64,000 nt of DNA. Source: an uncultured Candidatus Saccharibacteria bacterium (lineage in GTDB: Bacteria > Patescibacteriota > Minisyncoccia > Phycocordibacterales > UBA9973). Positions 8,501 to 21,388 of this stretch are shown here, piece by piece. The translations under genes and the position numbers were made by a program. Every line of letters begins with the position of its first letter. Positions within the stretch are counted from its first letter, which is position 1. The DNA is taken from assembly GCA_964500465.1 (NCBI GenBank), contig CAZCNB010000004.1, forward strand, positions 1,160 through 65,159, written 5' to 3'. The notes under the pieces are model-generated. The model saw only the letters and a list, made by a program, of their open reading frames with translations, was not told where the DNA came from and searched no databases.

Positions 8501-11500
8501 AGCACTTCAAAATACTTCAAGTACTGCTGTTGCATACAGCGGTTTAATAACCCTTGGTGCTGCAAGTACAATAATTTCAAACTATGGAGATGTAAATATA
8601 AGTAACACTGGAACTATTACTGGAGCAACATTTGGTCTTACTATCGGTGGTGCAGGCAACGGTACACTTTCAAGTATTTTAGGTACAACTTCTGGAACTT
8701 TAACTAAAAATGGTTTAGGTGTTTGGACTTTATCTGGATCAAGTACTTATACAGGCTTGACTACTATAAGTGCTGGTACTCTTAAACTTGGTGCAGCCGG
8801 TGGTGCAACTAATACTCCTCTTGGTACTACTGGTGGCGCTACATCTATAACAAGTGGTGCGATATTGGATCTTAATGGATTTACTCTAGGTACTTCTGAA
8901 GCTGTAACAATAAACGGTACTGGTATTGCAAACTACGGTGCTTTTATTAATAGTACAAACAATACAATCTCATATACAGGAGCTATTACTATGGGAGCAG
9001 CTTCACGTATCGTTAATTACGGGACAGGTGTTATGACTATATCTGGGAACATTTCAGGTAACTTTGCTCTTACAGTTGTAGCCGTTGGTAATTTCACACA
9101 AGCTACAAATAGTATTTGGTCAGGTACTGGTTCTCTTGTTAAAGAAGGTTCTGGAACTCTTATACTATCTGGGCAAAACACTATGACAGGAGCAATGACT
9201 GTAAGTACTGGTACTCTACAGTTAGGTGCTAATGGAGGAGTTACAAATACACCATTAGGTACTATTGCAGGGGGAGTAACGGTGTCTGCTGGGGCGGTAC
9301 TTGACCTTTCTACATTTACTGCCGGTGGCGCGTCTACTTGGGAACCATTAACTCTTAACGGTAGCGGACTATTAAATGGAGGTGCACTTATTAGTAATTC
9401 TACAACAGGTAGTAGTTTTGCAACTGTTGCTCAAACTAATGCTCGTGTTGTAAATAATGGTTCAGGCGCTTTAGTTATTACTGGTGCTGTAACTGGAGGT
9501 TCTACATTTTGGGTTGGGGGATCAGGTAACACTACAATTTCAGGAGCACTAAATACTGCAGGTTTACTTCTAACTAAATATGGTGCAGGAACTCTAACAT
9601 TAAGTAGTGCTACAAATATTAACACTTCACTTGTTCGTATCAATGCTGGAACTCTTGCTTATGGTGTTGCTGATGCACTTTCTACTCCACCAGTTACTGT
9701 TGCAGGCGGAACTCTCAACTTAAATGGATTTAATGAAACAAATCTCGGAGCCCTTACTCTTATTGATGGATCTGTTGTTAATACTGGGGCTGCAGCAACC
9801 CTAACTTCTACTGCTACTTATACACTAGAAAAAGGGACAGTGAGTGCTGTGCTTGGAGGAACCGTCGTTGCAGTAATAGCAAAAAATACAGCAGGTAAAG
9901 TTATCTTATCTGGTGACAATACATTTAGTGGTACCTCAGCTACTATAGCAGTGAATGCTGGTTATCTTAACCTACAACATAGTAATGCACTTGGTGCAGC
10001 TGCGAGTGCTAATACTACAACAATATCTGGTGGGGCAACGCTTGAACTTGAAAATAGCGTAACGATACCTAGTGTAAAAGCAATTACAGCAAATGGAACT
10101 GGTATGAGTAGAAGTGGCGCGATAAGAAGTGTGAGCGGTACTAATTCAATCGGTGCAAATGTTACCCTAGGTACTACTAATGTAAGAATAAATTCTGATT
10201 CGGGGACACTAACTATACCTACTATATCTGGAAATACTTTCAATCTTATTTTTGGTGGAGCAGGCAATACAACTGTAAGTGGTGCTATTAGTACTACAAC
10301 AGGTAGTCTAACTAAAGATGGAGCTGGAAGTCTTACTTTATCAGGGGTAAATACTTACACAGGAAGCACAACTGCAATAGCGGGTACTATCGTAGCCAAT
10401 AGTACTTCTTCTATAGGTGATGGAAGTAATGCAAACAATACTTTCATATTCAGAGGCGGGACACTTCAAGCTACTGGCACTATAACTTCAGCTTCAACTC
10501 GTGCATTTAGTCTTGCTACAAATGCTATCATTGATACAAACGGAAATAGCATAAGTATTGCTGGTACCGTTGGTTCAACAGGGGGTCTTACAGTAAATGG
10601 TGCAGGTACTCTCACTCTCACTGGGACAACTACTATCGGTGGTAATCTCACTATTGCGTCTGGTACATTTGTTGCACCAACTACCATGACTGTAAACGGA
10701 GATTTTAGTAATAGTGGTACATTTACACACAATAACGGTAGTTTGACTCTAACTCCAACCAACTCAACACTTACAACAAATATTTTAGGTAGTTCCAATA
10801 CAACATTTTATAATTTAATCAATACAACTCCAGGTTCAACAGTCAAACTTAAAGCTGGTAATACATATACGTTTGCAAACGTCCTAAATCTAACCGGAGT
10901 TGATGGTAATCCTATTTCAATAAATTCTGATACCCCTGATTCACAATGGCTAATGACACTATCAGGTTCAAGTTCAATTTCTTACTTGAAAGTTAAAGAT
11001 TCTGGATGTAGCGGAGGTAATAGTGTTGGAGCAAGTAGTAATATATACAATTACGGCAATAACGGTCCTTGCTGGTCTTTTGTTACTCCTACTCACGGAG
11101 GAGGAGGTGGTGGTTATATAGAAGGATCAGGTGCACTTGGTACTGTAGTTCTTACTGGAAATGTAGTTACTGGAGTTATTATTACCAATGGCGGAGGTGG
11201 ATATTCTACTCCACCAACGGTTAAATTCTGTGGCGGCGGTGGATCCGGAGCTCTAGGGACAGCAGTTTTAAGTAGTGGATCTGTTTCAAGTGTTACTATC
11301 GATAACGGTGGCTCCGGCTACAGTTCTTCAGTTACAGTTGTATTTGGCAGCAATTGTCCTACAACTGGCGGGGGCGGCGGAGGAACTGGAGGTAGTAGTA
11401 GTGCACGCGCAACTGCAGTAGTGTCTTCAAATGTTGTTCAGAGTGTAACTATAGATTTTGGTGGTAGTGGTTACACATCTACTCCAACAGTTAAATTCTG

Positions 11501-11780
11501 TGGCGGCGGTGGATCCGGAGCTCTAGGTACAGCAGTTTTGACAGGGGATTCTGTTTCAAGTGTTACTGTTGATAACGGAGGTTCTAATTACACGAGTGTA
11601 CCTAGTGTAGTATTCAATAGTAATTGTCCTACAACTGGTGGAGGTGGAGGTGGAGGTGGAGATATAGGTTTCTTGTACGATAAAAAGAGAATGTTTGCAC
11701 TGCTTGATCAGTCTGGACTTATAAATATTAAAAGTTACTTCTCTAAAATTTTCACAAGTAAGTTTAATTACTTTAAATAA
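2529..11780 (+). CDS. Giant (3083 aa) secreted surface protein made of autotransporter-associated beta-strand (PATR-type) repeats. It is a probable adhesin.
   Basis: It has a GTG start and a signal peptide (IFAIFFVAVFLFSFNTKFTEA). Dozens of ~32-aa repeats of the type G.GTLTLSG.NTYTG.TTI..GTL.LG appear. There are six ~150-aa modules of the form LKLGAAGGATNTPLGTTAG...LDLNGFTLG. The protein is Gly/Thr/Ser-rich. No C-terminal beta-barrel is recognisable. Confidence 0.85.
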   Translation: MKKNFTNSIRIFAIFFVAVFLFSFNTKFTEAATRTWTGTTSGSWSVASNWGGTAPVTGDDLVFPSGASNLSNTNDFIENTIFNSITFSGSGYTISGNPIILGAGLAGITDSVSSGGNTIALDIRLDVTRDIVVTNTTETLTISGRISGVGGINKEGTGKLILSGANTFGGILKINVGVVNAQNNTALGTIAGGTEVVGNAALELQGNINISYEALALRGYGPSSGGALRNISGNNNFSGLITMVAGGAEISSDSGTLTLLGGSSGGFPLTIDGSGNITFDKTPIIAGATVTKNGAGTLKYNFPNTYTGLTTINAGTLLYGVDNAILTGGITVTGGTLDIATYSDMVGTVTLGTLDLASGTITGTTGMLSSATWTLYNGTISAIIAGDGGTITKSTPGTVVLTRPNQFTGAVTISTGILEVQDSNALGLIDGITTVTAGATLQINGSGLSIPEYITFSGTGHLYTGAIRNKTGNNTLTGLLTLGTAGLIESDSGTTLTIDGKGLSAANIGLVIGGAGNVTFTSNAPIYGSGATLTKNDTGTLTLQGFNNFTGSTNLSRGEIVLSGSGAIPNSAITIGSGGTLTIDNSTTSALNRLSETAALTMNGGTFKFIGSSSGDVAESTGALTLASGHNIIDISPGSGGSTTMTFSSLSRTAGATALFRGTNFGSKPGSNVSTLMFTSAPTLIGGGGAANSPTISIIKGVFGDTSLSGTGSDMVTYNIGNTYGIRLLNSVGFTGEYSGDLNTPNANVKLTLDRAATTTNTNSIILDGFNITNPGGATTLPIASASLAGNILIDSATNIDGANTTLGITTFELNILASSNSTISAVIGTAVAGSLTLSGTGNVTLSGASAYTGTTSINNATLTAGANNILSTGGLTVIGGTYNIGNFSESLGAVILQNGTITGGSGVLTSTASYSFREGTVSAIIAGAVAVTRIATNTAADSVVTMTRNNTYTGATTITSGILRLGGAGDATNTPLGTTAGSTTVANIAALDLNGFTLGTAEAISIAGLGYGLGSTVANGNSNLGAIMNSSASAVSYSGAITLTAAARINADSGNLTISSAFSGAFGLTIGGFSNSTLSGVIGIGTGTITKDGIGVLTLSNSNTYTGSTTISAGTLKLGAAGGATNTPLGTTAGITTVSTGARFDLNGFTLGAAEPLTLNGVGYGLGDFASGALINSSGSTVSYSGLITLGSSGVLIKADSGTINLTNTGTISGATFALTLGGTGIGTLSSIIGTTTGTVTKIDTGTWTLSAAASTYTGATTINRGTLKLGVAGGATNTPLGTTGGGTSILSGGVLDLAGFTLGTAEALTINGRGINDGGALINSGGAATFAGAITQATDSRITNSGSGLLTLSGAISGVFALYIGGTNNITTAVLGMGTGTLTKQGSGTVTATGTHTYTGETRIDEGTFAYGATTTLAATNLLMKGGTFNSGANADTIGTVTLVGGTITNSAALTGTAYTFESGTISGILAGAVAVTKNTNNTVNLTGVNTISSTITINAGTLSLSGAGTATAVTGVTVNLGGTLTLDNSTTNSGDRLSGTTNNIVITMNGGNLNFIGNSAAAASETLGKLALASGHNVVTVTPGAGGSTTLTFGNNPGFNRTAGATVLFRGTSFGATPAANVSTLIFSTAPTLTGAAGAANSTTISVIKGAFGDSSLSGTGSDMVTYNVGNTNGLRLLNGAGFAGEYATALTTNTNVKLSANTVASTASINSLILNGFGITNPGSAATLTIGSASLAANILMNSSTDIAGANTTVAFSTVELSVLANNTSTISAVLNTAASGPMTLSGSGNVTLSAANAYTGTTTINNATLTYGVSNAISTGGLTIVGGLVNLNGNSDTVGTISINAGRITTGAGTLTGNGTFSTVANNNVASTITGNLGLGANATFTINDGLMDNDAFISAVISGAFTFAKAGAGVLELSGSNTYTGTTTISAGILRLGAAGDATNTPLGTTAGSTTVSGASSALDLNGFTLGTSEALTLSGALATGALQNTSSTAVAYSGLITLGAASTIISNYGDVNISNTGTITGATFGLTIGGAGNGTLSSILGTTSGTLTKNGLGVWTLSGSSTYTGLTTISAGTLKLGAAGGATNTPLGTTGGATSITSGAILDLNGFTLGTSEAVTINGTGIANYGAFINSTNNTISYTGAITMGAASRIVNYGTGVMTISGNISGNFALTVVAVGNFTQATNSIWSGTGSLVKEGSGTLILSGQNTMTGAMTVSTGTLQLGANGGVTNTPLGTIAGGVTVSAGAVLDLSTFTAGGASTWEPLTLNGSGLLNGGALISNSTTGSSFATVAQTNARVVNNGSGALVITGAVTGGSTFWVGGSGNTTISGALNTAGLLLTKYGAGTLTLSSATNINTSLVRINAGTLAYGVADALSTPPVTVAGGTLNLNGFNETNLGALTLIDGSVVNTGAAATLTSTATYTLEKGTVSAVLGGTVVAVIAKNTAGKVILSGDNTFSGTSATIAVNAGYLNLQHSNALGAAASANTTTISGGATLELENSVTIPSVKAITANGTGMSRSGAIRSVSGTNSIGANVTLGTTNVRINSDSGTLTIPTISGNTFNLIFGGAGNTTVSGAISTTTGSLTKDGAGSLTLSGVNTYTGSTTAIAGTIVANSTSSIGDGSNANNTFIFRGGTLQATGTITSASTRAFSLATNAIIDTNGNSISIAGTVGSTGGLTVNGAGTLTLTGTTTIGGNLTIASGTFVAPTTMTVNGDFSNSGTFTHNNGSLTLTPTNSTLTTNILGSSNTTFYNLINTTPGSTVKLKAGNTYTFANVLNLTGVDGNPISINSDTPDSQWLMTLSGSSSISYLKVKDSGCSGGNSVGASSNIYNYGNNGPCWSFVTPTHGGGGGGYIEGSGALGTVVLTGNVVTGVIITNGGGGYSTPPTVKFCGGGGSGALGTAVLSSGSVSSVTIDNGGSGYSSSVTVVFGSNCPTTGGGGGGTGGSSSARATAVVSSNVVQSVTIDFGGSGYTSTPTVKFCGGGGSGALGTAVLTGDSVSSVTVDNGGSNYTSVPSVVFNSNCPTTGGGGGGGGDIGFLYDKKRMFALLDQSGLINIKSYFSKIFTSKFNYFK
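4441..10100 (+). repeat. Large internal duplication inside the giant gene (~2.8-kb unit). The two anchor segments are at 4441-4800 and 7263-7620, and the PATR modules between and after them recur.
   Basis: Translated segment GSGGSTTMTFSSLSRTAGATALFRGTNFGSKPGSNVSTLMFTSAPTLIGGGGAANSPTISIIKGVFGDTSLSGTGSDMVTYNIGNTYGIRLLN recurs as GAGGSTTLTFGNNPGFNRTAGATVLFRGTSFGATPAANVSTLIFSTAPTLTGAAGAANSTTISVIKGAFGDSSLSGTGSDMVTYNVGNTNGLRLLN about 940 aa downstream. Confidence 0.7.
11090..11670 (+). repeat. Four tandem ~45-aa Gly-rich repeats at the C-terminus of the giant protein. Exact nucleotide repeats underlie them.
   Basis: There are alternating units ...GALGTxVLxxxxVSSVTIDNGGSGYxSxPTVKFCGGGGSG and ...VVFxSNCPTTGGGGGG. 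The string gttaaattctgtggcggcggtggatccggagctctagg occurs twice (~11218 and ~11494). The string aattgtcctacaactggygg also occurs twice. Confidence 0.7.
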
Positions 11781-11856: not shown

Positions 11857-12366
11857 ATGTCTACTAACTTCAGGATTGATGAATCAAGCACATCTGATCA
11901 ATATGAATCCCAAGACCGTGTTTTTACAACAAGGATTGTAAAAAAAAGACCATTTATGACCAAACGAAAGTTTACAAATACCATCATGCTGATAGCTTTA
12001 TTAATAGCACTTTCTTTTAGTGGATATTTGTATTATAAGCTCAACAATCTACAAAAAAATACTAAAGAAAATGTCGATAAAGAATCAAAAGATTTACTTA
12101 GTAAGGTTGCACGGTTATATTTAATACCAACTGGTGAAGAACCAACTATAGCTACAGTTTCAGATCCAGTTAAATTAAAAGATCAATCTTTTTTTTCTAG
12201 TTCTCAAAAAGGTGACAAAGTTCTTATTTTTTCTGAAGCAGGAAAAGCTGTGCTATATAGACCAAGTATAGATAAGATTATAGAAGTTGCTCCAATAAAT
12301 AATTCTAAGAAAGATGCTAAAGTACCTGAAAAAACAACAGAACCAACTAAAGATAAGACATTTTAG
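11857..12366 (+). CDS. Small membrane-anchored hypothetical protein. The N-terminus is cytoplasmic, there is one TM helix, and the tail is extracytoplasmic.
   Basis: It is an ORF of 169 aa with a TM helix IMLIALLIALSFSGYLYY. No family could be assigned. It sits at the 5' edge of the surface-protein island. Confidence 0.5.
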   Translation: MSTNFRIDESSTSDQYESQDRVFTTRIVKKRPFMTKRKFTNTIMLIALLIALSFSGYLYYKLNNLQKNTKENVDKESKDLLSKVARLYLIPTGEEPTIATVSDPVKLKDQSFFSSSQKGDKVLIFSEAGKAVLYRPSIDKIIEVAPINNSKKDAKVPEKTTEPTKDKTF

Positions 12367-13393
12367 TCTAATTGCATCATTTGTTTTCTTCCTGTCTCTT
12401 CTTTATCCATTCTCACAAATTTTTGCAGCACTATCTTGTAATGTTACTACTCAGGCAGCTTGTACTGGCGGAAGTGTAATACTCTTGCGCATGTCTGGTT
12501 CTACAAACGCTCACGCTGAACTTCCAAGTCAATCAAATACAAACTATGACAACTATGTTATATGTTGTTCAAGTTCTTCATCTATTGGAAATTCATGCAG
12601 TGCGTTTAATAAACAAGTGTTTTTAAAACTATCCGGTGTAACCAATGGCACTGTTCAAGAAACAAGTGTTAATACTTATGGAACTGATGCATGTCTTTCT
12701 GATGCAGTAGGGAACGATACTATTACTGTAGGATATCAGAATTCAAATTGTACTGGATACGACACTACTCTTGCTTCAATTTCTTCTTCAGATAATGCTC
12801 ATATAGGAGACGGCAGCGCTTATACTAGAAAAGTTTGTGCAACTGTCATACCTCAAACTATTTCTTTTGATATAGATACTGCATCTGACTTTAGTAATGG
12901 AGAGTCAAGTGCTCCATATTCTGTTGATTTGGGGACAATAACTACATCTACTGTTAAACATTCAGACAGTTCAACAGTGCGCATGATTGTATTAGAAGGA
13001 GATACAAATGCAGCCGGTGGCATGGTAGTAACAGTTCGAAATGCAAATGGTACAAACGGTCTAGTGTCTACATCAACTCCAGCAGATAACATAAACAGTG
13101 CAACAGCAACAATGGCAAACGGTACAGAAAACTATGGACTATGTGTTGCAACAGCTGGACTTACTGGATTTTCTAGGTCAACTGGCTATAGTTCTGATTC
13201 GTGTTCGCTTGCTTCAGGCACTAATGGTGTCCAAGCTCTAAGTACAACTCCAACAAGTATTATCAATTCTGCTGGAGCTCCAATTACCGGGGGTCATGCT
13301 GAGGTTGTTGTAAATGGAGCAGTTAGTGCAACAACTGCGTCTCACAACGACTACGCGGACACTCTAACATTCATTGCTACAGGGACATTTTAA
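12314..13393 (+). CDS. Secreted surface protein, paralog A. It has a signal peptide, a Cys-rich N-terminal region and a shared C-terminal ~190-aa domain that looks WxL-like with Met in place of Trp.
   Basis: The signal peptide is KIRHFSLIASFVFFLSLLYPFSQIFAA. The C-terminal domain runs from ISFDIDT... through RMIVLEGDTNAAGGMVVTVRNANG... to the terminal motif YADTLTFIATGTF*. This domain is shared with the downstream gene. Its first 17 codons overlap the preceding ORF. Confidence 0.7.
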   Translation: MLKYLKKQQNQLKIRHFSLIASFVFFLSLLYPFSQIFAALSCNVTTQAACTGGSVILLRMSGSTNAHAELPSQSNTNYDNYVICCSSSSSIGNSCSAFNKQVFLKLSGVTNGTVQETSVNTYGTDACLSDAVGNDTITVGYQNSNCTGYDTTLASISSSDNAHIGDGSAYTRKVCATVIPQTISFDIDTASDFSNGESSAPYSVDLGTITTSTVKHSDSSTVRMIVLEGDTNAAGGMVVTVRNANGTNGLVSTSTPADNINSATATMANGTENYGLCVATAGLTGFSRSTGYSSDSCSLASGTNGVQALSTTPTSIINSAGAPITGGHAEVVVNGAVSATTASHNDYADTLTFIATGTF

Positions 13394-13502
13394 GTAAAGT
13401 TATCCACATATATAGACGTTTTTTTGGTTATTTGGATATTTTTATGATAAAATATACGTATAAAAAGTGGCATTATTATTATTAATTTACAAGAAGTTTG
13501 TT

Positions 13503-14702
13503 ATGAATATTATTAAAATTATAAAATCTGTTTCTTCTAAGTTTGCTACCAGTTTTCTTATCGTAGCTTTGGTTGTTGTAAGTACATTTGGACCACAGTT
13601 GGCAACAGCTGCGTCCTTTACAACATCAAAGGACACTACTACGCGTCTAAAGTTATCTACTACTGCGGACCATATAATTAACTTCACATTACCAACTGGA
13701 GTTACTTTTGATGTATCTGGTAACACTGACGTCCTACGCGTTGATTTTCCTTCTTCCTTTACTCAGGGTGGTACTTGGCAAACAGCTGATTTTACATTTA
13801 ACGACGGTACAGCAAGAACAGTGAATGCTGTTTCAGCAGGAGCTGGTACTATAGATGTTACTTGTACAGATGCTGCCAACAACGTTGGTGTTGCTATCGA
13901 TACGACTAACTTAGTATTTACAGTTAAACCTTGTGGAGCATCATTCACAGCTTCAGGTTCTGCAGCTACTGTGACATTCACAATATTTGGTACAACAACT
14001 ACAGGTACTGGAACCTTAACTAATCCTTCATCTGTTGCTGCAACTAATATAGACTTTGGTATGTGTGACGAAACAGCTTCATGTACTTCTTCATACACAA
14101 ACTCACATTCAAGTCAGATTGCATATGCGATAGCTGATGATGATCAAGTTAACGTCTCTGCGATTGTAGGTTCATCAATAAACTTCGATATAGATACTTC
14201 TGTTGCAGATGCTGAAACAAACACACCTTATACTGTTGCTCTCGGTACTGTTACAACCGCTGATACACGCATTTCAGGAAGTACTGACAGTGTGAACATG
14301 ATAATACTAGAAGGTGACACTACTGGTGCCGGTGGCATGGTAGTAACAGTTCGAAATGCAAACGGTACAAACGGTTTAGTATCTACATCAACTCCTGCAG
14401 ATAACATAAACAGTGCAACAGCAACAATGGCAAACGGTACAGAAAACTATGGACTATGTGTTGCAACAGCTGGACTTACTGGATTTTCAAGAGCTGGATC
14501 ATATAACTCAGGTACATGTGCGCTAAACACTCTCAGTGATGTGAAGGCTCTAAGTACAACAGATGCTAATATAATCAGCACCACAGGACCATTTACTGGA
14601 GGCCATGCTGAAGTTGTAGTAAGTGCTGCTATAAGTACTTCAACTGTTGCTCACAATGACTACGCCGACACACTTACCTTTATTGCTACAGGTACATTCT
14701 AA
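13503..14702 (+). CDS. Secreted surface protein, paralog B, carrying the same C-terminal domain
   Basis: The probable start is MNIIKIIKSVSSKFATSFLIVALVVVSTFGPQLATAA, which is a signal peptide. The C-terminal 190 aa are paralogous to 12314..13393 and include a near-identical 161-nt stretch. It ends in the identical motif HNDYADTLTFIATGTF*. Confidence 0.7.
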   Translation: MNIIKIIKSVSSKFATSFLIVALVVVSTFGPQLATAASFTTSKDTTTRLKLSTTADHIINFTLPTGVTFDVSGNTDVLRVDFPSSFTQGGTWQTADFTFNDGTARTVNAVSAGAGTIDVTCTDAANNVGVAIDTTNLVFTVKPCGASFTASGSAATVTFTIFGTTTTGTGTLTNPSSVAATNIDFGMCDETASCTSSYTNSHSSQIAYAIADDDQVNVSAIVGSSINFDIDTSVADAETNTPYTVALGTVTTADTRISGSTDSVNMIILEGDTTGAGGMVVTVRNANGTNGLVSTSTPADNINSATATMANGTENYGLCVATAGLTGFSRAGSYNSGTCALNTLSDVKALSTTDANIISTTGPFTGGHAEVVVSAAISTSTVAHNDYADTLTFIATGTF

Positions 14703-14721: not shown

Positions 14722-15753
14722 ATGCCCACTTTCTCTAACAAAAGAGTCGCAAATACTCTACTAATACTGGTTGCTATAGTGTGCTTTTCTTATGCACAAA
14801 ATGTTTCAGCACTAAGCATTTCTCCAGTAAGAGTTGAGGTAAGTGGTAATCCTGGTGAGACTATAGAAAAAGAGACAACCCTAATAAATGATAGTGATGC
14901 TTCAGAAGTAATATACTATTCTTCATATGCCAACTTTGAAGCATCTGGAGATACGGGTAATCCTTCTTTTGTAGAAGGTAATCATGACATAGCAACATGG
15001 ATGTTTGTTCCTGCTTCAATTAGCCTAAAACCTAAAGAGTCTAAAAAGATAAACTTAAAAATTGAAATTCCAAAAGATGCTGAACCAGGAGGTCACTTCG
15101 GTGCAGTGTTTTGGGGTACTAGTCCAAACAATCCAGGCTCAGGTGTTTCTATCGGTGCAAAAACTGGAGTCCTAGTCCTTCTTTCTGTAAATGGAGATGT
15201 AAAAGAGGGTGGAGGACTAGTTGATTTTGTTTTGAAAGATAAAAAAGTATTTTATAACACACTACCAGTATCTCTTGTATATAGATTTAGAAATGATGGA
15301 GGTGATCGTATAAAACCAGTAGGTAAAATTACTATGCATGATTTATTCTATATACCTGAGGATAAAATAAATGCGAATCCTACAAGTGGTAATATCCTCC
15401 CTAATAGTACTCGACGTTTTGAGGTTGATTGGGTTAAAAATCCAAGAGCTAAAGATTACGTAGAACCTAATGGACCTATAGGGAAATTTTTTGATAAGGC
15501 ACTTTACCAATGGAAAAACTATGCTTTTGGACCATATTTTGCAAAATTGGATCTTCTTTATGGTACAAATGCAACCCGTGTTTCTAAAACAGTTTTCTTC
15601 TTTGTATTTCCTTGGCAATTATTAATATGCCTAGCGGTCATCTTGTTTATTGTATTTTGGGGAGGAAGGAAACTACTTAGACGTTACAATAGATACATAA
15701 TACAAAAGGCTCGTCTTGGTATTAAAACACCAAACGATGCCGGTCATGAGTAA
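14722..15753 (+). CDS. Cell-surface protein with an N-terminal Ig-like beta domain and a C-terminal TM anchor. It resembles DUF916/DUF3324 (CscA-like) proteins of WxL clusters.
   Basis: It has a signal peptide. The segment SISPVRVEVSGNPGETIEKETTLINDSD...KESKKINLKIEIPKDAEPGGHFGAVFWG fits the DUF916-like pattern as I remember it. A C-terminal TM helix (FFFVFPWQLLICLAVILFIVFW) is followed by the basic tail GGRKLLRRYNRY. Confidence 0.55.
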   Translation: MPTFSNKRVANTLLILVAIVCFSYAQNVSALSISPVRVEVSGNPGETIEKETTLINDSDASEVIYYSSYANFEASGDTGNPSFVEGNHDIATWMFVPASISLKPKESKKINLKIEIPKDAEPGGHFGAVFWGTSPNNPGSGVSIGAKTGVLVLLSVNGDVKEGGGLVDFVLKDKKVFYNTLPVSLVYRFRNDGGDRIKPVGKITMHDLFYIPEDKINANPTSGNILPNSTRRFEVDWVKNPRAKDYVEPNGPIGKFFDKALYQWKNYAFGPYFAKLDLLYGTNATRVSKTVFFFVFPWQLLICLAVILFIVFWGGRKLLRRYNRYIIQKARLGIKTPNDAGHE

Positions 15754-16633
15754 TATAAAATCAATATTATCTTTTGCCCTTATTTTTTTAGTGGCTTCAG
15801 CTATACCTATTTATGTTTTTGCTATAGATTACTCTCTGCCTCCTGAAAATGTATCAGTTTCTGCTGTTGTTACTGGACCAATTATTGGTCCTATAGATGA
15901 TGGTGGTGGAGGTGGTGGAATGTTATATGGTCTTATATTTTCAGGTTGGGCTTATCCAGGAGCCACAGTGCATATAATGAAAGACGGTATTCCTAAGACA
16001 ACTACTTTAGCAAATAGTGAAGGTTATTTTAGTGTTACTCTTAGCGAATTATATAAATCAAATGTTTTATATACTTTATACGCTATAGATAAAGATAATA
16101 GACGATCTATATTACTAAACTATCCAATTGTAGTGAAAATAGGTTATTTTACTCAAATCTCTGGTATCCGTTTCCCACCAACCATATCTACTGATAAAAA
16201 TGAAGTAAAAGCAGGAGATTCAATAATTGTACGAGGTTATGCTTTACCAAATAAACTTCTTGATGTTGTAATACAGGGTATTAGCGGAAAAACTTTTTAT
16301 GTAACTAGTAATCCAGATGGAACTTATGAGTTACCCATATCACTTTTTGGATTTAGAAAAAATAATTACAACTTACACGTAAATTATAATTTGGATAAAA
16401 AAATAAGTAAGGTTATTCAATTTACAATAGGTGACGCTAATATTTTAAGTGTAGATTTGGTTAATAACTTACCAGGCGATTGTAATGCTGACCAAATTAT
16501 AAATATAGTAGATTTTTCTGTTGCAGCTTTTTGGTATGGTAAACCAAATCCACCACGTTGTATAGATACTAATAACGACAATACTATCAATCTTATCGAT
16601 TTTTCTATATTGGCATTTTACTGGACTGGATAA
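15746..16633 (+). CDS. Secreted protein with two CarboxypepD_reg/Cna-B-like beta-sandwich domains and a C-terminal dockerin-like double EF-hand module
   Basis: The start at 15746 overlaps the upstream stop. A signal peptide and a poly-Gly linker (DDGGGGGGM) are present. PGATVHIMKDGIPKTTTLANSEGYFSV and AGDSIIVRGYALPNK...SNPDGTYELPI are Cna-B-like. The C-terminus DCNADQIINIVDFSVAAFWYG...DTNNDNTINLIDFSILAFYWTG has two D-x-N-x-D-x3-N-x2-D loops, each followed by a hydrophobic helix, which is the dockerin signature. Confidence 0.65.
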   Translation: MSNIKSILSFALIFLVASAIPIYVFAIDYSLPPENVSVSAVVTGPIIGPIDDGGGGGGMLYGLIFSGWAYPGATVHIMKDGIPKTTTLANSEGYFSVTLSELYKSNVLYTLYAIDKDNRRSILLNYPIVVKIGYFTQISGIRFPPTISTDKNEVKAGDSIIVRGYALPNKLLDVVIQGISGKTFYVTSNPDGTYELPISLFGFRKNNYNLHVNYNLDKKISKVIQFTIGDANILSVDLVNNLPGDCNADQIINIVDFSVAAFWYGKPNPPRCIDTNNDNTINLIDFSILAFYWTG

Positions 16634-16640
16634 CTAGAAT

Positions 16641-17507
16641 ATGAAAAAAATTTTATTTATAATAGTAATATTTTTTGTTCACACACTTACTACACACGCA
16701 GCAAGTGTTTCTATTGTTGCACCTACAACAGTTGAAACCACAAATCAGTTTAATGTTTCTGTGTATCTAAATACCGAAGGGGTATCAATAAATTCTATCG
16801 ATATTACATTATCTTACCCAGATGACATTATGATCTTTCAGGGATATAAAGAAGATGGTGGAGTCAAGAAAATTTGGATTCAAACTCCAAAAGAACAGAA
16901 TGGCACTATTCGTTTTTCTGGTATTATTCCTGGTGGTGTAAATGGTATTTATGATCCAGATAAGATCGGATTACAACCTGTGCCACTTACTACTTTACTT
17001 TTTTCTCCAAGAGCGAATGGTTCTGGTGATCTATCAATACTTAATTCCAAGATTTTACAAAATGATGGAATTGGAAGTGAATTACTTCACACAATTTCTA
17101 ATCAAAAAATCCTAGTCAGTATCTCGAACGAATCTCTAGAAGAAAACAAACAATCTATTTTAGACAAAGAATTACCTGAACCATTTAAGATTGAATTCAT
17201 ACCATCAGGTTTATTTTCAGAAACACCCTCCATGATATCTTTTTTTGCAGTGGATAATTTATCTGGAGTAGCAAAATATCAAGTAAAAGATGGGAGTAGT
17301 ATATGGAAGGATGCTACAAGTCCACTAGTTACTCCAAAAGGGATAGTTAAAAGAACTATAACCGTACGAGCTATAGATTTCTCAGGGAATGTGCGTGAAT
17401 CTAGTATAGATATACCAGGCATACTTTCTGCGATACAATTGGTGGCAGTTTTTATACTTTTCACTGTTTGCTACTTCATGTTTTTTGTGGTAAAAAGAAG
17501 AAGATGA
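16641..17507 (+). CDS. Membrane-anchored cohesin-like protein 1
   Basis: It has a signal peptide. ASVSIVAPTTVETTNQFNVSVYLNTEGVSINSIDITLSYPDDIMIF...GTIRFSGIIPGG fits the beta-strand pattern of a cohesin domain. A C-terminal TM helix LVAVFILFTVCYFMFFVV is followed by KRRR. Confidence 0.6.
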   Translation: MKKILFIIVIFFVHTLTTHAASVSIVAPTTVETTNQFNVSVYLNTEGVSINSIDITLSYPDDIMIFQGYKEDGGVKKIWIQTPKEQNGTIRFSGIIPGGVNGIYDPDKIGLQPVPLTTLLFSPRANGSGDLSILNSKILQNDGIGSELLHTISNQKILVSISNESLEENKQSILDKELPEPFKIEFIPSGLFSETPSMISFFAVDNLSGVAKYQVKDGSSIWKDATSPLVTPKGIVKRTITVRAIDFSGNVRESSIDIPGILSAIQLVAVFILFTVCYFMFFVVKRRR

Positions 17508-18613
17508 AATACTACGTAAAGACTATAATATATAGTATTTTAACTTTAGTAGTATTTCTTACTACGCCTGTATATGCTGGAAACTCTTCACTTTTCTTAG
17601 GAAAATCTCAATCAACAGTTGGTGAGGGAAGCAACATAACTATTGATGTAAAAGTAAAATCACCAGATGAACCTATTAACGCAGTATCCGGATCACTTTC
17701 TTTTCCTAGTGATTTATTGCAAATTGTTTCTATTTCAAGAGATGATAGTATTTTGAATATCTGGACCCATGATCCAAATATCAGCAGAAATAAGATTTCT
17801 TTTGAAGGAGTGATACTAAATCCTGGTTATATTGGTCAAGGTGGAAGCATTTTCCATATTACCTTTCAGGCAAAGAAAATAGGAACAGCTACCATATATT
17901 TTAATGAAGGTTCAATACTTGCAAACGATGGACTTGGAACAAATATCATAAATGGGTTGAGTTCTACTAGTTTCAATATTATTGCATCTGGTGCACTTGA
18001 TCTAGTAAGGCCAATTGCAACAAATAATAATGGTAGATTAATGGCTCTGCCAGTTATAACTGAATATTCCGAGTCAGTGTATTCTAAGGATAGTGTTTAC
18101 CTAAGAGGAAAGGGGGAACCAAATGCTGTTACAAAACTTTCTTTTGAAAAAGTATCTAATAAGTCCTTCGGTGAACAGTTTTTAGATTTTATTCAGTCTA
18201 AAAAGAAACGCTTAACTGATGTATTAGTAAAAAATAATGATAAAGGTTTGTTTGAATATATTACTCCTAATAATTTGATCGCAGGAGTTTACAATGCCAC
18301 ACCTTTCTTAGTTGATGACAATACAAATACTACAAAACCAGGTCTTGGTGTTAGACTATTTGTGAATGATAGTAAGATAATAAAAGCACTTATTGTTTTT
18401 ATAAATATACTAATACTGTTAATACCAATAGTTGGACTAATAATGCTAATATATTTTATCCCTTGGTATTCATCTCGAAGAATGCGTATACTCAAGCGTA
18501 AAATGGGCCTCGAAGAAGAGAAAATTCAACTTACTGAGCATGAGTTAGAGCGCCAAGATAAGATGCTTTCCCAAGCACCCATACCGCCCATATCTACTGA
18601 AAAAAGGGAATAA
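17504..18613 (+). CDS. Membrane-anchored cohesin-like protein 2 with a cytoplasmic coiled-coil tail
   Basis: The probable start at 17504 overlaps the upstream TGA by 4 nt. It has a signal peptide. The cohesin-like segment is GSNITIDVKVKSPDEPINAVSGSLSFPSDLLQIVSISRDD...SIFHITFQAKKIGTATIYF. A TM helix (ILILLIPIVGLIMLIYFIPWY) is followed by a charged helical tail RRMRILKRKMGLEEEKIQLTEHELERQDKML. Confidence 0.6.
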   Translation: MKYYVKTIIYSILTLVVFLTTPVYAGNSSLFLGKSQSTVGEGSNITIDVKVKSPDEPINAVSGSLSFPSDLLQIVSISRDDSILNIWTHDPNISRNKISFEGVILNPGYIGQGGSIFHITFQAKKIGTATIYFNEGSILANDGLGTNIINGLSSTSFNIIASGALDLVRPIATNNNGRLMALPVITEYSESVYSKDSVYLRGKGEPNAVTKLSFEKVSNKSFGEQFLDFIQSKKKRLTDVLVKNNDKGLFEYITPNNLIAGVYNATPFLVDDNTNTTKPGLGVRLFVNDSKIIKALIVFINILILLIPIVGLIMLIYFIPWYSSRRMRILKRKMGLEEEKIQLTEHELERQDKMLSQAPIPPISTEKRE

Positions 18614-18632: not shown

Positions 18633-19724
18633 ATGAGAAGATTTAATATCTCGGTAATTCTCGTTATTTTTGTATTAATATCTGGCTTCCCAAATATAAT
18701 TAATGCAGATAGTGATATTTTAACACCCCAAGAAAACTTGTGGCTTAAGTCTCGCAACAATACTATTATTGTTTATCCAGAAAAGAATTTTCCTCCATAT
18801 TCTTATCAAAATGCTTCTAGAACACCCCAAGGTTTATCGATAGATTATATAGAGCTTGTTGCTAAAAAAGTAGGAGCAAAAGTCGAGTATTTACAAGCTC
18901 GCCCACTTTATCAGATATTAGATGATATAAAACAAGATGGTAAAGGTGATGTAGTCACCTCATTATCTGAAAATAAAGAAAGAGATGATTTTTTATATTT
19001 TTCTGATACCTATATTACTAGTCCTGCAGTTATAGTAGTGCGTAAAGATTTAGATAAGAGAAGTGATATGACACTATCTGACTTAACTGGCAAGAAAGTG
19101 GCTATTGGTGATCAATATGCAGTTGAAGACTTTGTTCGGGTTAATAATCCTAGGGTTGTTATAGATTCAGTAACTGACGATGAGTTGGGCCTACAAAAGT
19201 TAGTTTTAGGAGAGGTTGATGCAGCAATTATTGACGTTACTTCTTTATCTTATTATCTTTCAAAGCAAGTACTAAATAGTGTTAGAATTGTAGGTAGTAC
19301 AGGGTTTGAATATAAGCTTTCTTTTGCTGTACCTAAAGATAAAGAAATACTCCAATCAATAATAGATAAAGGTTTACAGCAAATAAGTACAAATGATAGG
19401 AAAATTATTACCGATAAATGGGTAGTGATACCTAATAAATCAAGCTCCACTAATCCTTTTATTTCTTATCTCAAACAGAATATTAGCACAATAGTACTTT
19501 ATGTCTTACTTTGTGCAATAATATTAATGTTACTTATTAGAAGAACAAATGGAACAAGATATTTTTCTTTTAGAAATCGCACCAAGATGGATAAAGTTAA
19601 TGAGTTAAAACAGGAGATTATTGAACTAGAAGATACTAGTAAAGGTCTCATGGAAGAATTAAATGAAGTTAAAATTCTTGAAGAAAATATAAAAGAAAAA
19701 GTTAAAAGTATTGAAACTCAATAA
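18633..19724 (+). CDS. Orphan solute-binding (SBP_bac_3 / sensor-type VFT) ectodomain protein with a C-terminal TM helix and a short cytoplasmic coiled coil
   Basis: It has a signal peptide. LTPQENLWLKSRNNTIIVYPEKNFPPYSY...GLSIDYIELVAKKVGAKVEYLQ matches the N-terminal signature of SBP_bac_3 domains found on sensor kinases and ABC-transporter binding proteins. A TM helix (IVLYVLLCAIILMLLI) and the coiled coil ELKQEIIELEDTSKGLMEELNEVKILEENIKEK follow. No kinase or other output domain is present. Confidence 0.65.
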   Translation: MRRFNISVILVIFVLISGFPNIINADSDILTPQENLWLKSRNNTIIVYPEKNFPPYSYQNASRTPQGLSIDYIELVAKKVGAKVEYLQARPLYQILDDIKQDGKGDVVTSLSENKERDDFLYFSDTYITSPAVIVVRKDLDKRSDMTLSDLTGKKVAIGDQYAVEDFVRVNNPRVVIDSVTDDELGLQKLVLGEVDAAIIDVTSLSYYLSKQVLNSVRIVGSTGFEYKLSFAVPKDKEILQSIIDKGLQQISTNDRKIITDKWVVIPNKSSSTNPFISYLKQNISTIVLYVLLCAIILMLLIRRTNGTRYFSFRNRTKMDKVNELKQEIIELEDTSKGLMEELNEVKILEENIKEKVKSIETQ

Positions 19725-19767: not shown

Positions 19768-20856
19768 ATGAAATCATTATTAATCTATATATTCCTGATC
19801 GCTGTACTAATAACCCCAACATCTAGCACTAAAGCACAATCAAACTTACTTAATAGTGAGGAAAATATATGGATTTCTTCAAGGAATAATACTATCTCAG
19901 TGGTTCCAGAAAGAAACAATCCGCCCTTTTCTTTTAATGATTCATCCTATATATCCCAAGGTATATTTATAGATTATATAAAGCTTGTTTCTGAAAAATT
20001 AAATATTAAAGTAGATTTTTTAACTTCTCGTACTAGATCTGATATTATTGCAGGAATATATGAAGATAAAGCTGATTTTGTTTCTACTCTTGAGATTGAT
20101 AAAATTGAAAACACCAATCTAGCTTCCACAAGTCCTTATTCTACTTTCCCAGTTGTTATTGCGGTTCGTAAAGATTATGACGCAAGAGAGGGGATGACAC
20201 TAGATGATTTTAATAATAGGAGTGTTGCTGTAATGCAAGATTCTCCTATAAATTCTTATATAAAGAAAAATTACCCAAGGATAGTTATACAAGAAGTAGT
20301 CGATAACGAGCTTGCTTTACAAAAAGTAGCTCTAAACGAAGTTGATGCTACGGTCATAAATTCCGCATCTCTAACTTATCTACTTTCTAAACAATCTATG
20401 CGTAGCATAAAAGTTGTAGGAAGTATTCCTCTTGATTCAAAAATGTCATTTGTTGTTCCGAAAGACAAATTAGTTTTAAGTTCTATTTTGACTAAAGGAT
20501 TAAAACAAGTTAGCGCCAAAGAGCACCAGCAGATAATTGATAAATGGATTTCATTACCCAACGAGAAAGACAATAAGAATACTCTGATTACTTACATTAA
20601 CGATAATTTTGTTATTATACTTATTACACTATTGTTTTTAGTAATATTAGTATCAATGTTTTTATTCTTTAGAAAAAGAAATCATTATTTTAACTATAAT
20701 CACGAACATAAAAATAGTAAATTAATTGAATTAGAAAAAGAAATATCCGAACTTGAATCTACTAGTGCCAGTTTGATAGATGAACTTAAGGAGGTAAAAA
20801 ACTTAGAACAAGATATTAAAAATAAAATTAGACAAGGAGAATCTATCCATCATTAA
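19768..20856 (+). CDS. Tandem paralog of the orphan SBP_bac_3-type ectodomain membrane protein
   Basis: The architecture is the same. It contains NIWISSRNNTISVVPERNNPPFSF...GIFIDYIKLVSEKLNIKVDFL, a TM helix IILITLLFLVILVSMFLFF and a C-terminal coiled coil SKLIELEKEISELESTSASLIDELKEVKNLEQDIKNK. It is about 35-40% identical to the upstream copy. Confidence 0.65.
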   Translation: MKSLLIYIFLIAVLITPTSSTKAQSNLLNSEENIWISSRNNTISVVPERNNPPFSFNDSSYISQGIFIDYIKLVSEKLNIKVDFLTSRTRSDIIAGIYEDKADFVSTLEIDKIENTNLASTSPYSTFPVVIAVRKDYDAREGMTLDDFNNRSVAVMQDSPINSYIKKNYPRIVIQEVVDNELALQKVALNEVDATVINSASLTYLLSKQSMRSIKVVGSIPLDSKMSFVVPKDKLVLSSILTKGLKQVSAKEHQQIIDKWISLPNEKDNKNTLITYINDNFVIILITLLFLVILVSMFLFFRKRNHYFNYNHEHKNSKLIELEKEISELESTSASLIDELKEVKNLEQDIKNKIRQGESIHH

Positions 20857-20881: not shown

Positions 20882-21388
20882 ATGAGTAATCAAAAAGGTT
20901 TCACATTAATTGAACTACTTGTCGCGGTAGCTATAATCGCAATATTAGCCAGTGTAATAATGACTATGTCTTCTAATGCAAGGAATAATGCCAAAGATGC
21001 AGCTATCAGAAGGCAGTTTGCAGAATTTACTAAACTGCTTTTGCAAGAATATGTTGATAATGGTACTTATGCAAATCTTCAACTTCCAGCAACTTATTTT
21101 TATACTAAAGAAGATTGCGAATCAGGATTTACTTCAAGTGTATATGTTTCTGAAGCCCGAGCTATATGTAAAGAGATAGTTAAAAATTTAAATAACGGAG
21201 CATTTTATGTAGGAGCTAATAATCCTAGTTCTCAAAAGTATTCTATTTCAACAAACTTGAACACACCAGTTTACTTATCTGGAAATCCCACAGGGCATGA
21301 TTATTGTGTTGGAAGTAGTGGGACTTACGATGGCACCTCTGTAGGTAATGGAAGTCAGACCCAAAAAGGTTGTTATAATAACCCTTAA
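20882..21388 (+). CDS. Type IV pilin / pseudopilin (prepilin N-terminal cleavage-methylation domain)
   Basis: The N-terminus MSNQKGFTLIELLVAVAIIAILASVIM is a canonical class III signal peptide, with the motif G|FTLIEL and a hydrophobic alpha1 helix. Confidence 0.9.
   Translation: MSNQKGFTLIELLVAVAIIAILASVIMTMSSNARNNAKDAAIRRQFAEFTKLLLQEYVDNGTYANLQLPATYFYTKEDCESGFTSSVYVSEARAICKEIVKNLNNGAFYVGANNPSSQKYSISTNLNTPVYLSGNPTGHDYCVGSSGTYDGTSVGNGSQTQKGCYNNP

Follow-up and report, generated by a model that had tools for sequence, protein, structure and literature searches.

What is a cohesin-dockerin pair doing in an ultra-small bacterium, with no glycoside hydrolase (GH) beside it? The question is posed by three adjacent genes, which we call A, B and C, on the forward strand of a 64,000-nucleotide stretch (herein the window) of contig CAZCNB010000004.1 from an uncultured Candidatus Saccharibacteria bacterium (GCA_964500465.1; placed by GTDB in the Minisyncoccia). 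Paceibacteria and other CPR (candidate phyla radiation) bacteria are ultra-small, mostly uncultivated and thought to be attached to hosts; how they hold on to a host and organize their envelope is largely obscure. A preliminary description made from the sequence located the three genes correctly (A, 15746..16633; B, 16641..17507; C, 17504..18613) and proposed that they form a minimal scaffold tethered to the membrane. As a proposal, the tether withstands our analysis; the minimal, stand-alone character does not, as the trio is the middle of a conserved surface cassette of eight to nine genes. Our reading, to which we give a probability of about 0.62, is that a conserved cell-envelope cassette of Paceibacteria has A, B and C as its core, and that the three build a non-cellulosomal, membrane-tethered, non-enzymatic surface assembly. 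The observed part of this reading consists of the identity of the domains, their conservation, the synteny of the genes and a membrane topology that is predicted.

The translation of A ends ...PGDCNADQIINIVDFSVAAFWYGKPNPPRCIDTNNDNTINLIDFSILAFYWTG, a C-terminal dockerin module spanning residues 243-295 (16472..16630). A type I dockerin (PF00404) is made of two tandem F-hand repeats of ~22 residues, in each of which a helix comes after a Ca2+ loop of 12 residues (D-x-N/D-x-D-x-x-x-N/D-x-x-D). A has both repeats; its two loops (D245-D256 and D274-D285) read D-x-N-x-D-x-x-x-N-x-x-D, and each runs into a DFS..AF(W/Y)(Y/W) helix. Across 82 non-redundant orthologues the Ca2+ ligands at loop positions 1, 3, 5 and 12 are 94-100% D, N, D and D in both repeats. 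Pfam Dockerin_1 matches 34 of 42 aligned members of the A family at E<=0.01 (best 4.4e-7), and several distant orthologues reach 24.5-26.0 bits, above the gathering threshold of 22.9 bits. The solved dockerin 2y3n_B (PDB) is matched by window A at E 1e-3 and by the A-family profile at E 1.3e-4. A model of A from AlphaFold2 (AF2), with a predicted local distance difference test score (pLDDT) of 79.8, has two β-sandwiches followed by helices 254-262 and 283-294. The dockerin is also the most conserved module of the locus, with a mean pairwise distance of 0.35 against 0.53-0.65 for the other modules. Translation, loops and ligand conservation thus bear out the double EF-hand dockerin of the preliminary description.

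The epithet "textbook" given to this dockerin goes too far: the Pfam score of window A is sub-threshold (below), the linker between the repeats is unusually short at 8 residues, and there is a lineage-specific Cys pair. C246 (16481-16483) occupies position 2 of loop 1 and C272 (16559-16561) lies two residues before loop 2. The two cysteines co-occur strictly in the 82 orthologues (51 have both, 31 neither and 0 a single one), a perfect co-occurrence that implies either a putative disulfide or some joint site. The two loops of a canonical dockerin do not lie next to each other in the fold, which sits awkwardly with the geometry of such a pair. The halves of the module show a strong internal two-fold symmetry in sequence, and this symmetry would be compatible either with a dual binding mode, in which the dockerin accepts either partner, or with a bridging of both.

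Upstream of the dockerin, A comprises a signal peptide, a short strand, a Gly-rich linker and two tandem immunoglobulin (Ig)-like β-sandwiches (residues ~60-128 and ~134-229; 15923..16432), and it has no transmembrane anchor. The sandwiches are modeled with pLDDT ~71-96. Pfam Big_6 matches them in 42 of 42 family members and CarboxypepD_reg-like families in 18 of 42, and they resemble tandem-Ig adhesins, with Foldseek matches to Bap (7dm0) and SiiE (2yn3). The domains had been described as Cna-B-like in place of a glycoside hydrolase; they are indeed β-sandwiches and no hydrolase is present, but they are Big_6- or CarboxypepD_reg-like and there is no Cna_B match. As anticipated from the sequence, no enzyme, catalytic or carbohydrate-binding module (CBM) domain is recognizable in A, B or C with Pfam and NCBIfam, or with Foldseek for A. 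The short strand directly after the signal peptide (ENVSVSAVV; residues ~35-43, 15848-15874) is found family-wide as E-x-VSVSA-x-V ahead of the Gly-rich linker. AF2 assigns it a pLDDT of 43-52, and it could be donated to another protein.

The two genes that follow A were described as encoding cohesin-like domains, and this is confirmed for C by Pfam together with AF2 and Foldseek and for B by strong homology to C. The cohesin of C (residues ~26-165; 17579-17998) scores 26.4 bits against Pfam Cohesin (PF00963) over residues 40-144, above the gathering threshold of 24.1 bits. It was modeled with AF2 from 46 homologues at pLDDT 88-93 over most of the domain, and adopts the nine-stranded jelly-roll β-sandwich of a cohesin. 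In a Foldseek comparison with the PDB, cohesins lead the matches, the cohesin-FN3 pair of NagJ (2w1n) being found at 2.4e-11; target template modeling (TM) scores lie between 0.74 and 0.76 for the top cohesin structures, with root-mean-square deviations (rmsd) of 2.7-3.5 Å (2jh2, 0.75; 3ul4, 0.74 with rmsd 2.7 Å; the Archaeoglobus cohesin 2xdh, 0.76). Behind the cohesin the model continues with a second, Ig-like β-sandwich (residues ~180-290; 18041-18373) and a single unbroken helix, residues 291-356.

Window B has no Pfam Cohesin match, and 4 of 24 members of its family match at E<=0.01. Searched against the PDB as a single sequence, C returned nothing; B itself and the profiles of the two families found cohesins weakly or marginally (best E 0.035, for the B-family profile against the NagJ cohesin 2jh2). 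B residues ~6-160 are homologous to the C cohesin by BLASTP (E 3e-9); hhalign aligns the two cohesins over 146 columns with a probability of 99.5% (E 5.6e-23), and reciprocal hidden Markov model (HMM) matches are found at 2e-15 and 5e-19. The N-terminal domain of B (residues ~20-162; 16698-17126) is accordingly assigned as a putative cohesin by strong homology, and the proposal that B is not a cohesin was rejected on the hhalign result. The domain behind it (residues ~175-255; 17163-17405) is Fn3/Ig-like, with weak matches to an NCBIfam OmpL47-type barrel domain and to the Fn3 domain of chitinase A1 (PDB: 1k85).

Both proteins begin with a signal peptide and end with a hydrophobic segment followed by basic residues, in agreement with the C-terminal transmembrane anchors of the preliminary description. 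The transmembrane helix of B (residues ~261-284; 17421-17492) is followed by a KRRR end; that of C (residues ~292-320; 18377-18463) forms, together with a charged tail of ~49 residues (321-369; 18464-18610), the long helix 291-356 of the model, so that the cytoplasmic tail described for one of the cohesin proteins belongs to C. From the N-terminal signal peptides and the C-terminal transmembrane helices, B and C are predicted to be type-I, single-pass membrane proteins with N-out/C-in topology and a membrane-distal cohesin. An I-N motif, a Trp, F-x-G and L-x-N-D-G-x-G-T are invariant in both families. DSSP strand order in the model, and not a superposition, would place these shared motifs on strands 3, 5, 6, 8 and on the loop that follows; the 8-3-6-5 sheet of cohesins is the dockerin-binding face in solved complexes.

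The transmembrane segment and tail of C hold many residues that are invariant in 46 sequences, including W321, Y322, S323, M327, E337 and E338. The unusual conservation of the tail (consensus YFIPWYSxRRMRVLKKKMGLEEEKIEL..HQLERQDK) hints at a possible cytoplasmic or intramembrane partner. One homologue of C has been annotated as PspC-like by JGI.

The three proteins are unique in the window and widespread outside it. A six-frame scan of the 64 kb with an HMM for the dockerin and for each cohesin family recovered A, B and C only, all other matches having E > 0.2; A is thus the only dockerin that the window contains. Homologues were detected for A (240), B (31) and C (307), in Patescibacteria wherever the source names the organism; the closest relatives of all three are from Patescibacteria/Paceibacteria metagenome-assembled genomes (MAGs), and a few homologues are already named "dockerin type I domain-containing" or "cohesin domain-containing protein" by NCBI. 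A relative of A is present in 362 genomes, counted with one genome per GTDB species, and the best 80 of these 362 belong to lineages of Paceibacteria (Nomura-, Yanofsky-, Vogel- and Zambryskibacteria, Minisyncoccia). A wider taxonomic spread, indicated by a few "Saccharibacteria", "Gammaproteobacteria" and "Bacteroidia" labels, was considered and set aside because all named relatives are Paceibacteria lineages; those labels seem to be automatic MAG labels or to come from mis-binned short contigs.

Gene order was compared in 85 fetched loci covering ±10 kb, with counts made on non-redundant or informative subsets. The order is remarkably uniform: g1 - W - W - I - A - B - C - S(-S), where the letters stand for the genes of the cassette. 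In the strict window, A is followed by two cohesin open reading frames (ORFs) in 69 of the 75 non-redundant loci whose sequence extends 2.6 kb or more downstream of A. Five loci appear to have one cohesin; three of these are ORF-start artefacts and one holds a fused ORF of 670 aa, giving a corrected figure of ~73/75. Among informative loci, 43 of 60 have gene I directly upstream of A, 42 of 60 carry at least two W genes and 37 of 62 have one or two SBP_bac_3 genes after C; g1 marks the upstream end of the cassette in 33 of 85. Every locus has exactly one dockerin ORF, and neither the 64-kb window nor the ±10 kb of the related loci holds an enzyme, a GH, a CBM or a second dockerin. Distant members vary in length while keeping the same plan. 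In a Yanofskybacteria locus (L062, 7243-12534), A is 669 aa long, with an extra unannotated N-terminal region of ~400 aa and a fully canonical, Cys-free dockerin (GDLNKDGKVN...), and C, at 672 aa, has additional Ig-like spacers as well as a short segment in which REVLV is repeated. From such members, the Ig-Ig-dockerin and cohesin-stalk-transmembrane logic is kept as the lengths of stalk and passenger change.

The mechanism that we propose starts with A, which would be exported without an anchor of its own; its C-terminal Ca2+-type dockerin would plug into the cohesin that B and/or C carry at the membrane-distal end. Each of these two proteins would hold its cohesin on an Ig/Fn3-like stalk and cross the membrane once. 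Ca2+-dependent docking would keep the conserved N-terminal strand of A and its two Ig-like domains at the cell surface, where A may be presented as part of a larger assembly that the cassette encodes, comprising a WxL-cluster-like trio and transmembrane-anchored solute-binding proteins. The role of such an assembly might be adhesion, host contact or envelope organization; it would not be that of a cellulosome. Binding, stoichiometry and biological role are all inferred, the binding of the A dockerin to the cohesins of B and/or C from domain identity and near-universal gene adjacency. The findings named beforehand as fatal to the proposal were a cohesin fold without support from profiles or structure prediction and Ca2+ loops lacking the conserved geometry; what we found is a supported cohesin fold and a conserved loop pattern.

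Several observations weigh against this reading. Window A scores 17.3 bits with Dockerin_1 (E 0.0055), under the threshold of the family. Positions 10-11 of each of its dockerin repeats, which are recognition positions, are hydrophobic (I/L-V/I) and non-canonical; canonical type I dockerins have Ser-Thr there. The cohesin fold of B is a putative one, assigned by homology to C, and the docking itself is putative as well. The loci always retain two different cohesin proteins for their one dockerin. A mirror-tree comparison of the dockerin with the two cohesins (Coh1/Coh2) gave partial correlations of 0.44 and 0.38 with protein I controlled, no excess over shared phylogeny; in the same analysis the dockerin correlates with A's own Ig domains at r 0.62, above both cohesins. 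Finally, the search for further dockerins and enzymes covers 64 kb of this genome and the ±10 kb of related loci.

This last point leaves room for a true, if minimal, cellulosome-like enzyme display, in which B and C would be anchoring scaffoldins, the cargo hydrolases would be encoded elsewhere and A would be one non-catalytic client or adaptor. The cohesin and dockerin modules are bona fide, and some distant A orthologues carry the extra ~400-aa N-terminal region; in the Yanofskybacteria locus, though, this region has no Pfam enzyme match. We consider such a display quite improbable, the least likely of our alternatives. There is a single dockerin ORF at each of the 85 loci, and dockerin-bearing GHs and CBMs, which would mark a cellulosome, are lacking from the window and from the ±10 kb of the related loci. 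With one cohesin each, B and C make no multivalent scaffoldin, and they have no SLH domain or LPXTG motif for attachment of the cellulosome type, by SLH or by sortase. The dockerin gene strictly adjoins the cohesin genes, as is typical of a dedicated pair. Paceibacteria genomes are, moreover, very small (~0.8-0.9 Mb), and contigs in this size range occur among the genomes that bear A, such as CBFHKH010000001.1 (840 kb), CAYVOI010000001.1 (876 kb) and CAVOJZ010000002.1 (913 kb).

A somewhat better candidate, which we still think unlikely, is that the modules are homologous to cohesins and dockerins but have ceased to be partners: the B and C sandwiches would bind a host glycan, peptidoglycan or the W and I proteins, and the A dockerin would be a Ca2+-stabilized module serving something else. 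The putative nature of the pairing, the recognition positions that differ from those of characterized type I dockerins, the weak Pfam scores of window A and B and a mirror-tree that does not discriminate all suit this proposal. It would leave unexplained why A adjoins two cohesin genes in ~73 of 75 species, why the dockerin is the most conserved module and why the invariant motifs of B and C would fall on strands of the canonical binding face; in addition, all experimentally tested non-cellulosomal pairs cited in PMC9012536 bind. The assembly might instead sense or take up something across the envelope, with docking recruiting or regulating the transmembrane segment and cytoplasmic helix of C and the anchored SBP_bac_3 proteins, which would then be its central parts. 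The invariant residues of the C tail in 46 sequences speak for this, as do the SBP_bac_3 genes with their transmembrane helix and charged helical tail after C in 37 of 62 loci. The cassette, on the other hand, encodes no kinase, ABC permease/ATPase or other output domain, the tails are short, and the solute-binding protein genes are absent from ~40% of informative loci; a sensing or uptake complex therefore seems improbable to us. A further proposal, that the cassette is mobile, phage-borne or a defense system, was rejected on its conserved synteny with gyrB, thrS and rpoBC.

Cohesin and dockerin modules are well established in non-cellulolytic bacteria and in archaea, where tested pairs bind specifically (PMC9012536, citing Peer 2009, Haimovitz 2008), and the concept of non-cellulosomal modules as mere linkers of surface proteins has been put forward (PMC9012536). 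The proteins described here resemble the pairs of Clostridium perfringens (NagJ/NagH toxin complexes), Archaeoglobus fulgidus and the surface proteins of anaerobic methanotrophic archaea (ANME) in two respects: the modules are a double F-hand dockerin and a single cohesin joined to an Fn3-like module, and the organisms that carry them are not cellulose degraders. The NagJ cohesin-FN3 structures (2w1n and 2jh2) and the A. fulgidus cohesin 2xdh are among the best structural matches of C. The proteins described here differ in the anchoring of the cohesins by a C-terminal transmembrane helix, in a dockerin carrier that has Ig-like domains only and no enzyme, in the fixed operon, shared by hundreds of Paceibacteria species, where one dockerin gene always goes with two distinct cohesin genes, and in a dockerin that has a very short linker and, in 51 of 82 orthologues, a co-varying Cys pair.

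Cellulosome anchoring scaffoldins are of two familiar types, SLH-anchored in C. thermocellum and sortase-anchored in R. flavefaciens. Like them, B and C are cell-bound cohesins that would receive a secreted, dockerin-bearing protein, and the A dockerin shares with dual-binding-mode type I dockerins its Ca2+-type loops and its two-fold symmetry. In contrast, neither the window nor the ±10 kb around the related loci holds a multi-cohesin scaffoldin or GH/CBM cargo; the anchor is a transmembrane helix in place of SLH or LPXTG, and the host is an ultra-small CPR bacterium.

Within the Patescibacteria, a dockerin-domain envelope protein, SEML1_0315, is essential in Southlakia epibionticum, a cultivated Patescibacterium of the Saccharibacteria, and has been proposed to act in host-cell interaction (PMC10633639). 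A is likened to it by description only, as a dockerin-bearing envelope protein of a Patescibacterium; S. epibionticum belongs to the class Saccharimonadia rather than to the Paceibacteria, and no cohesin partners are described for its protein (PMC10633639). Our searches for papers on dockerins or cohesins in Patescibacteria, CPR, Parcubacteria or Saccharibacteria found no description of the present cassette. Already known are cohesin-dockerin modules outside cellulosomes and some of the homologues, through their NCBI names as cohesin or dockerin domain-containing proteins. New are the transmembrane-anchored single cohesins, the enzyme-free fixed operon of one dockerin and two cohesins, the compact dockerin with its co-varying Cys pair and the genetic fusion with a WxL-like display cluster. 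An enzyme-free, putative cohesin-dockerin tether that is found in hundreds of species beside gyrB and rpoBC offers a concrete candidate for part of the attachment or envelope apparatus of these bacteria. It would also extend the cohesin-dockerin toolkit to transmembrane-anchored single cohesins and to a compact, possibly Cys-bridged dockerin variant, which could serve as an orthogonal pair for protein assembly.

The genes that precede A recall a cluster known from Firmicutes. The cassette opens with g1 (11857..12366), which encodes a small protein of 169 aa with an N-terminal transmembrane anchor, and continues with two paralogous genes, W1 (12314..13393) and W2 (13467..14702), all on the forward strand. 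W1 and W2 are secreted and have in common a family-specific C-terminal module of ~185 aa (12836-13390 and 14154-14699), which ends HNDYADTLTFIATGTF. The product of gene I (14722..15753), 343 aa long, begins with a signal peptide; its N-terminal region is WxLIP_PGBD-like, and behind it come a second region and a C-terminal transmembrane helix. WxLIP_PGBD (DUF916) matches 15 of 26 members of the I family at E values from 1e-4 to 0.01, all of them sub-threshold (18.0 against a cutoff of 27.3 for window I), and there is no WxLIP_HBD match in I; by analogy with WxLIP, the protein may carry two Ig-like domains. The commonest WxL/Csc clusters of Firmicutes combine two WxL proteins with one WxLIP (DUF916-DUF3324-transmembrane helix) of 337-365 aa (PMC10599100, PMC1534035). 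The cassette shares with them two secreted proteins with a common C-terminal module, followed by a transmembrane protein whose length falls within the WxLIP range and whose family shows the weak WxLIP_PGBD matches. The likeness is one of layout only: the WxLIP_PGBD matches are sub-threshold, no Pfam or NCBIfam family covers the W family, Pfam WxL matches 0 of its 28 members, and the window W modules have no Trp and thus lack the dual W-x-L motif. A WxL assignment of the W module was consequently rejected, on the missing Pfam match and the missing tryptophan, and the name serves as an analogy.

Among 1.84 billion proteins, a profile of the W module found 313 cluster representatives. Every listed protein without a visible N-terminal cut has the module at its extreme C-terminus; these proteins are ~170-2955 aa long, and one of them carries an RCC1 β-propeller. 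From this position on proteins of such variable length, the module behaves as a display or anchor module, and it looks like a C-terminal domain, so far undescribed, by which Patescibacteria display proteins at the surface or anchor them. Inside the modules of the two window genes, 200 nt (W1 12977-13176; W2 14292-14491) are 92% identical in DNA, which suggests that gene conversion may have acted between the tandem copies; ~55 consecutive residues of the modules are identical.

Downstream of C lie S1 (18633-19724) and S2 (19768-20856), again on the forward strand, which encode extracytoplasmic SBP_bac_3 domains with a C-terminal transmembrane helix and a charged helical cytoplasmic tail of ~55 aa. 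The S1 and S2 tails look coiled-coil-like, and no ABC permease or kinase is found near the two genes.

Taken as a whole, the order g1-W-W-I-A-B-C-S invites a bolder reading, which we regard as doubtful, namely that the cassette encodes an undescribed, Paceibacteria-wide surface organelle, the host-attachment apparatus of these episymbionts. The WxL-cluster-like display would carry variable, sometimes giant passengers by way of the W C-terminal module, and the cohesin-dockerin tether would couple this display system to the cytoplasmic membrane. The nearly two-fold-symmetric A dockerin would bridge B and C into a heterotrimer, the N-terminal strand of A (E-x-VSVSA-x-V with its Gly linker) might enter the W or I proteins by β-strand complementation, and the invariant cytoplasmic helix of C may relay or organize the complex from inside.

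The arrangement of the genes fits their treatment as a unit. From 11.8 to 20.9 kb the window is an unbroken series of forward-strand genes. The start of A overlaps I by 8 nt, with in-frame alternative starts for A at 15716 (TTG) and 15737 (ATG); the gap between A and B is 7 nt, and the ATG of C overlaps the stop codon of B by 4 nt (ATGA). Given the 4- and 8-nt overlaps, the trio and the neighboring cassette genes are probably co-transcribed. Between 11.5 and 21.6 kb there is no terminator-like site on the forward strand, and promoter-like matches are no commoner than in shuffled sequence. The G+C content of the window is low (~0.31-0.41). Its core genes include gyrB and thrS, recognized from ORF translations and from the Pfam domains of syntenic genes, as well as rpoB, rpoC, dnaG, rpoD and the genes for SMC, RNase R and uvrA.

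Two further genes flank the cassette. Upstream, 2529-11780 encodes a secreted protein of 3083 aa that contains Gly runs and 11 or more PATR (passenger-associated transport) repeats and has a hydrophobic segment at its C-terminal end; different large surface proteins replace it at this position in other loci, for example a protein with an LTD domain (L002). Between the cassette and gyrB, 20882-21388 encodes a protein that resembles type IV pilins and bears a methylation motif at its N-terminus (Pfam N_methyl, E 1.2e-10), and this gene occurs at the same position in just one related locus (L007).

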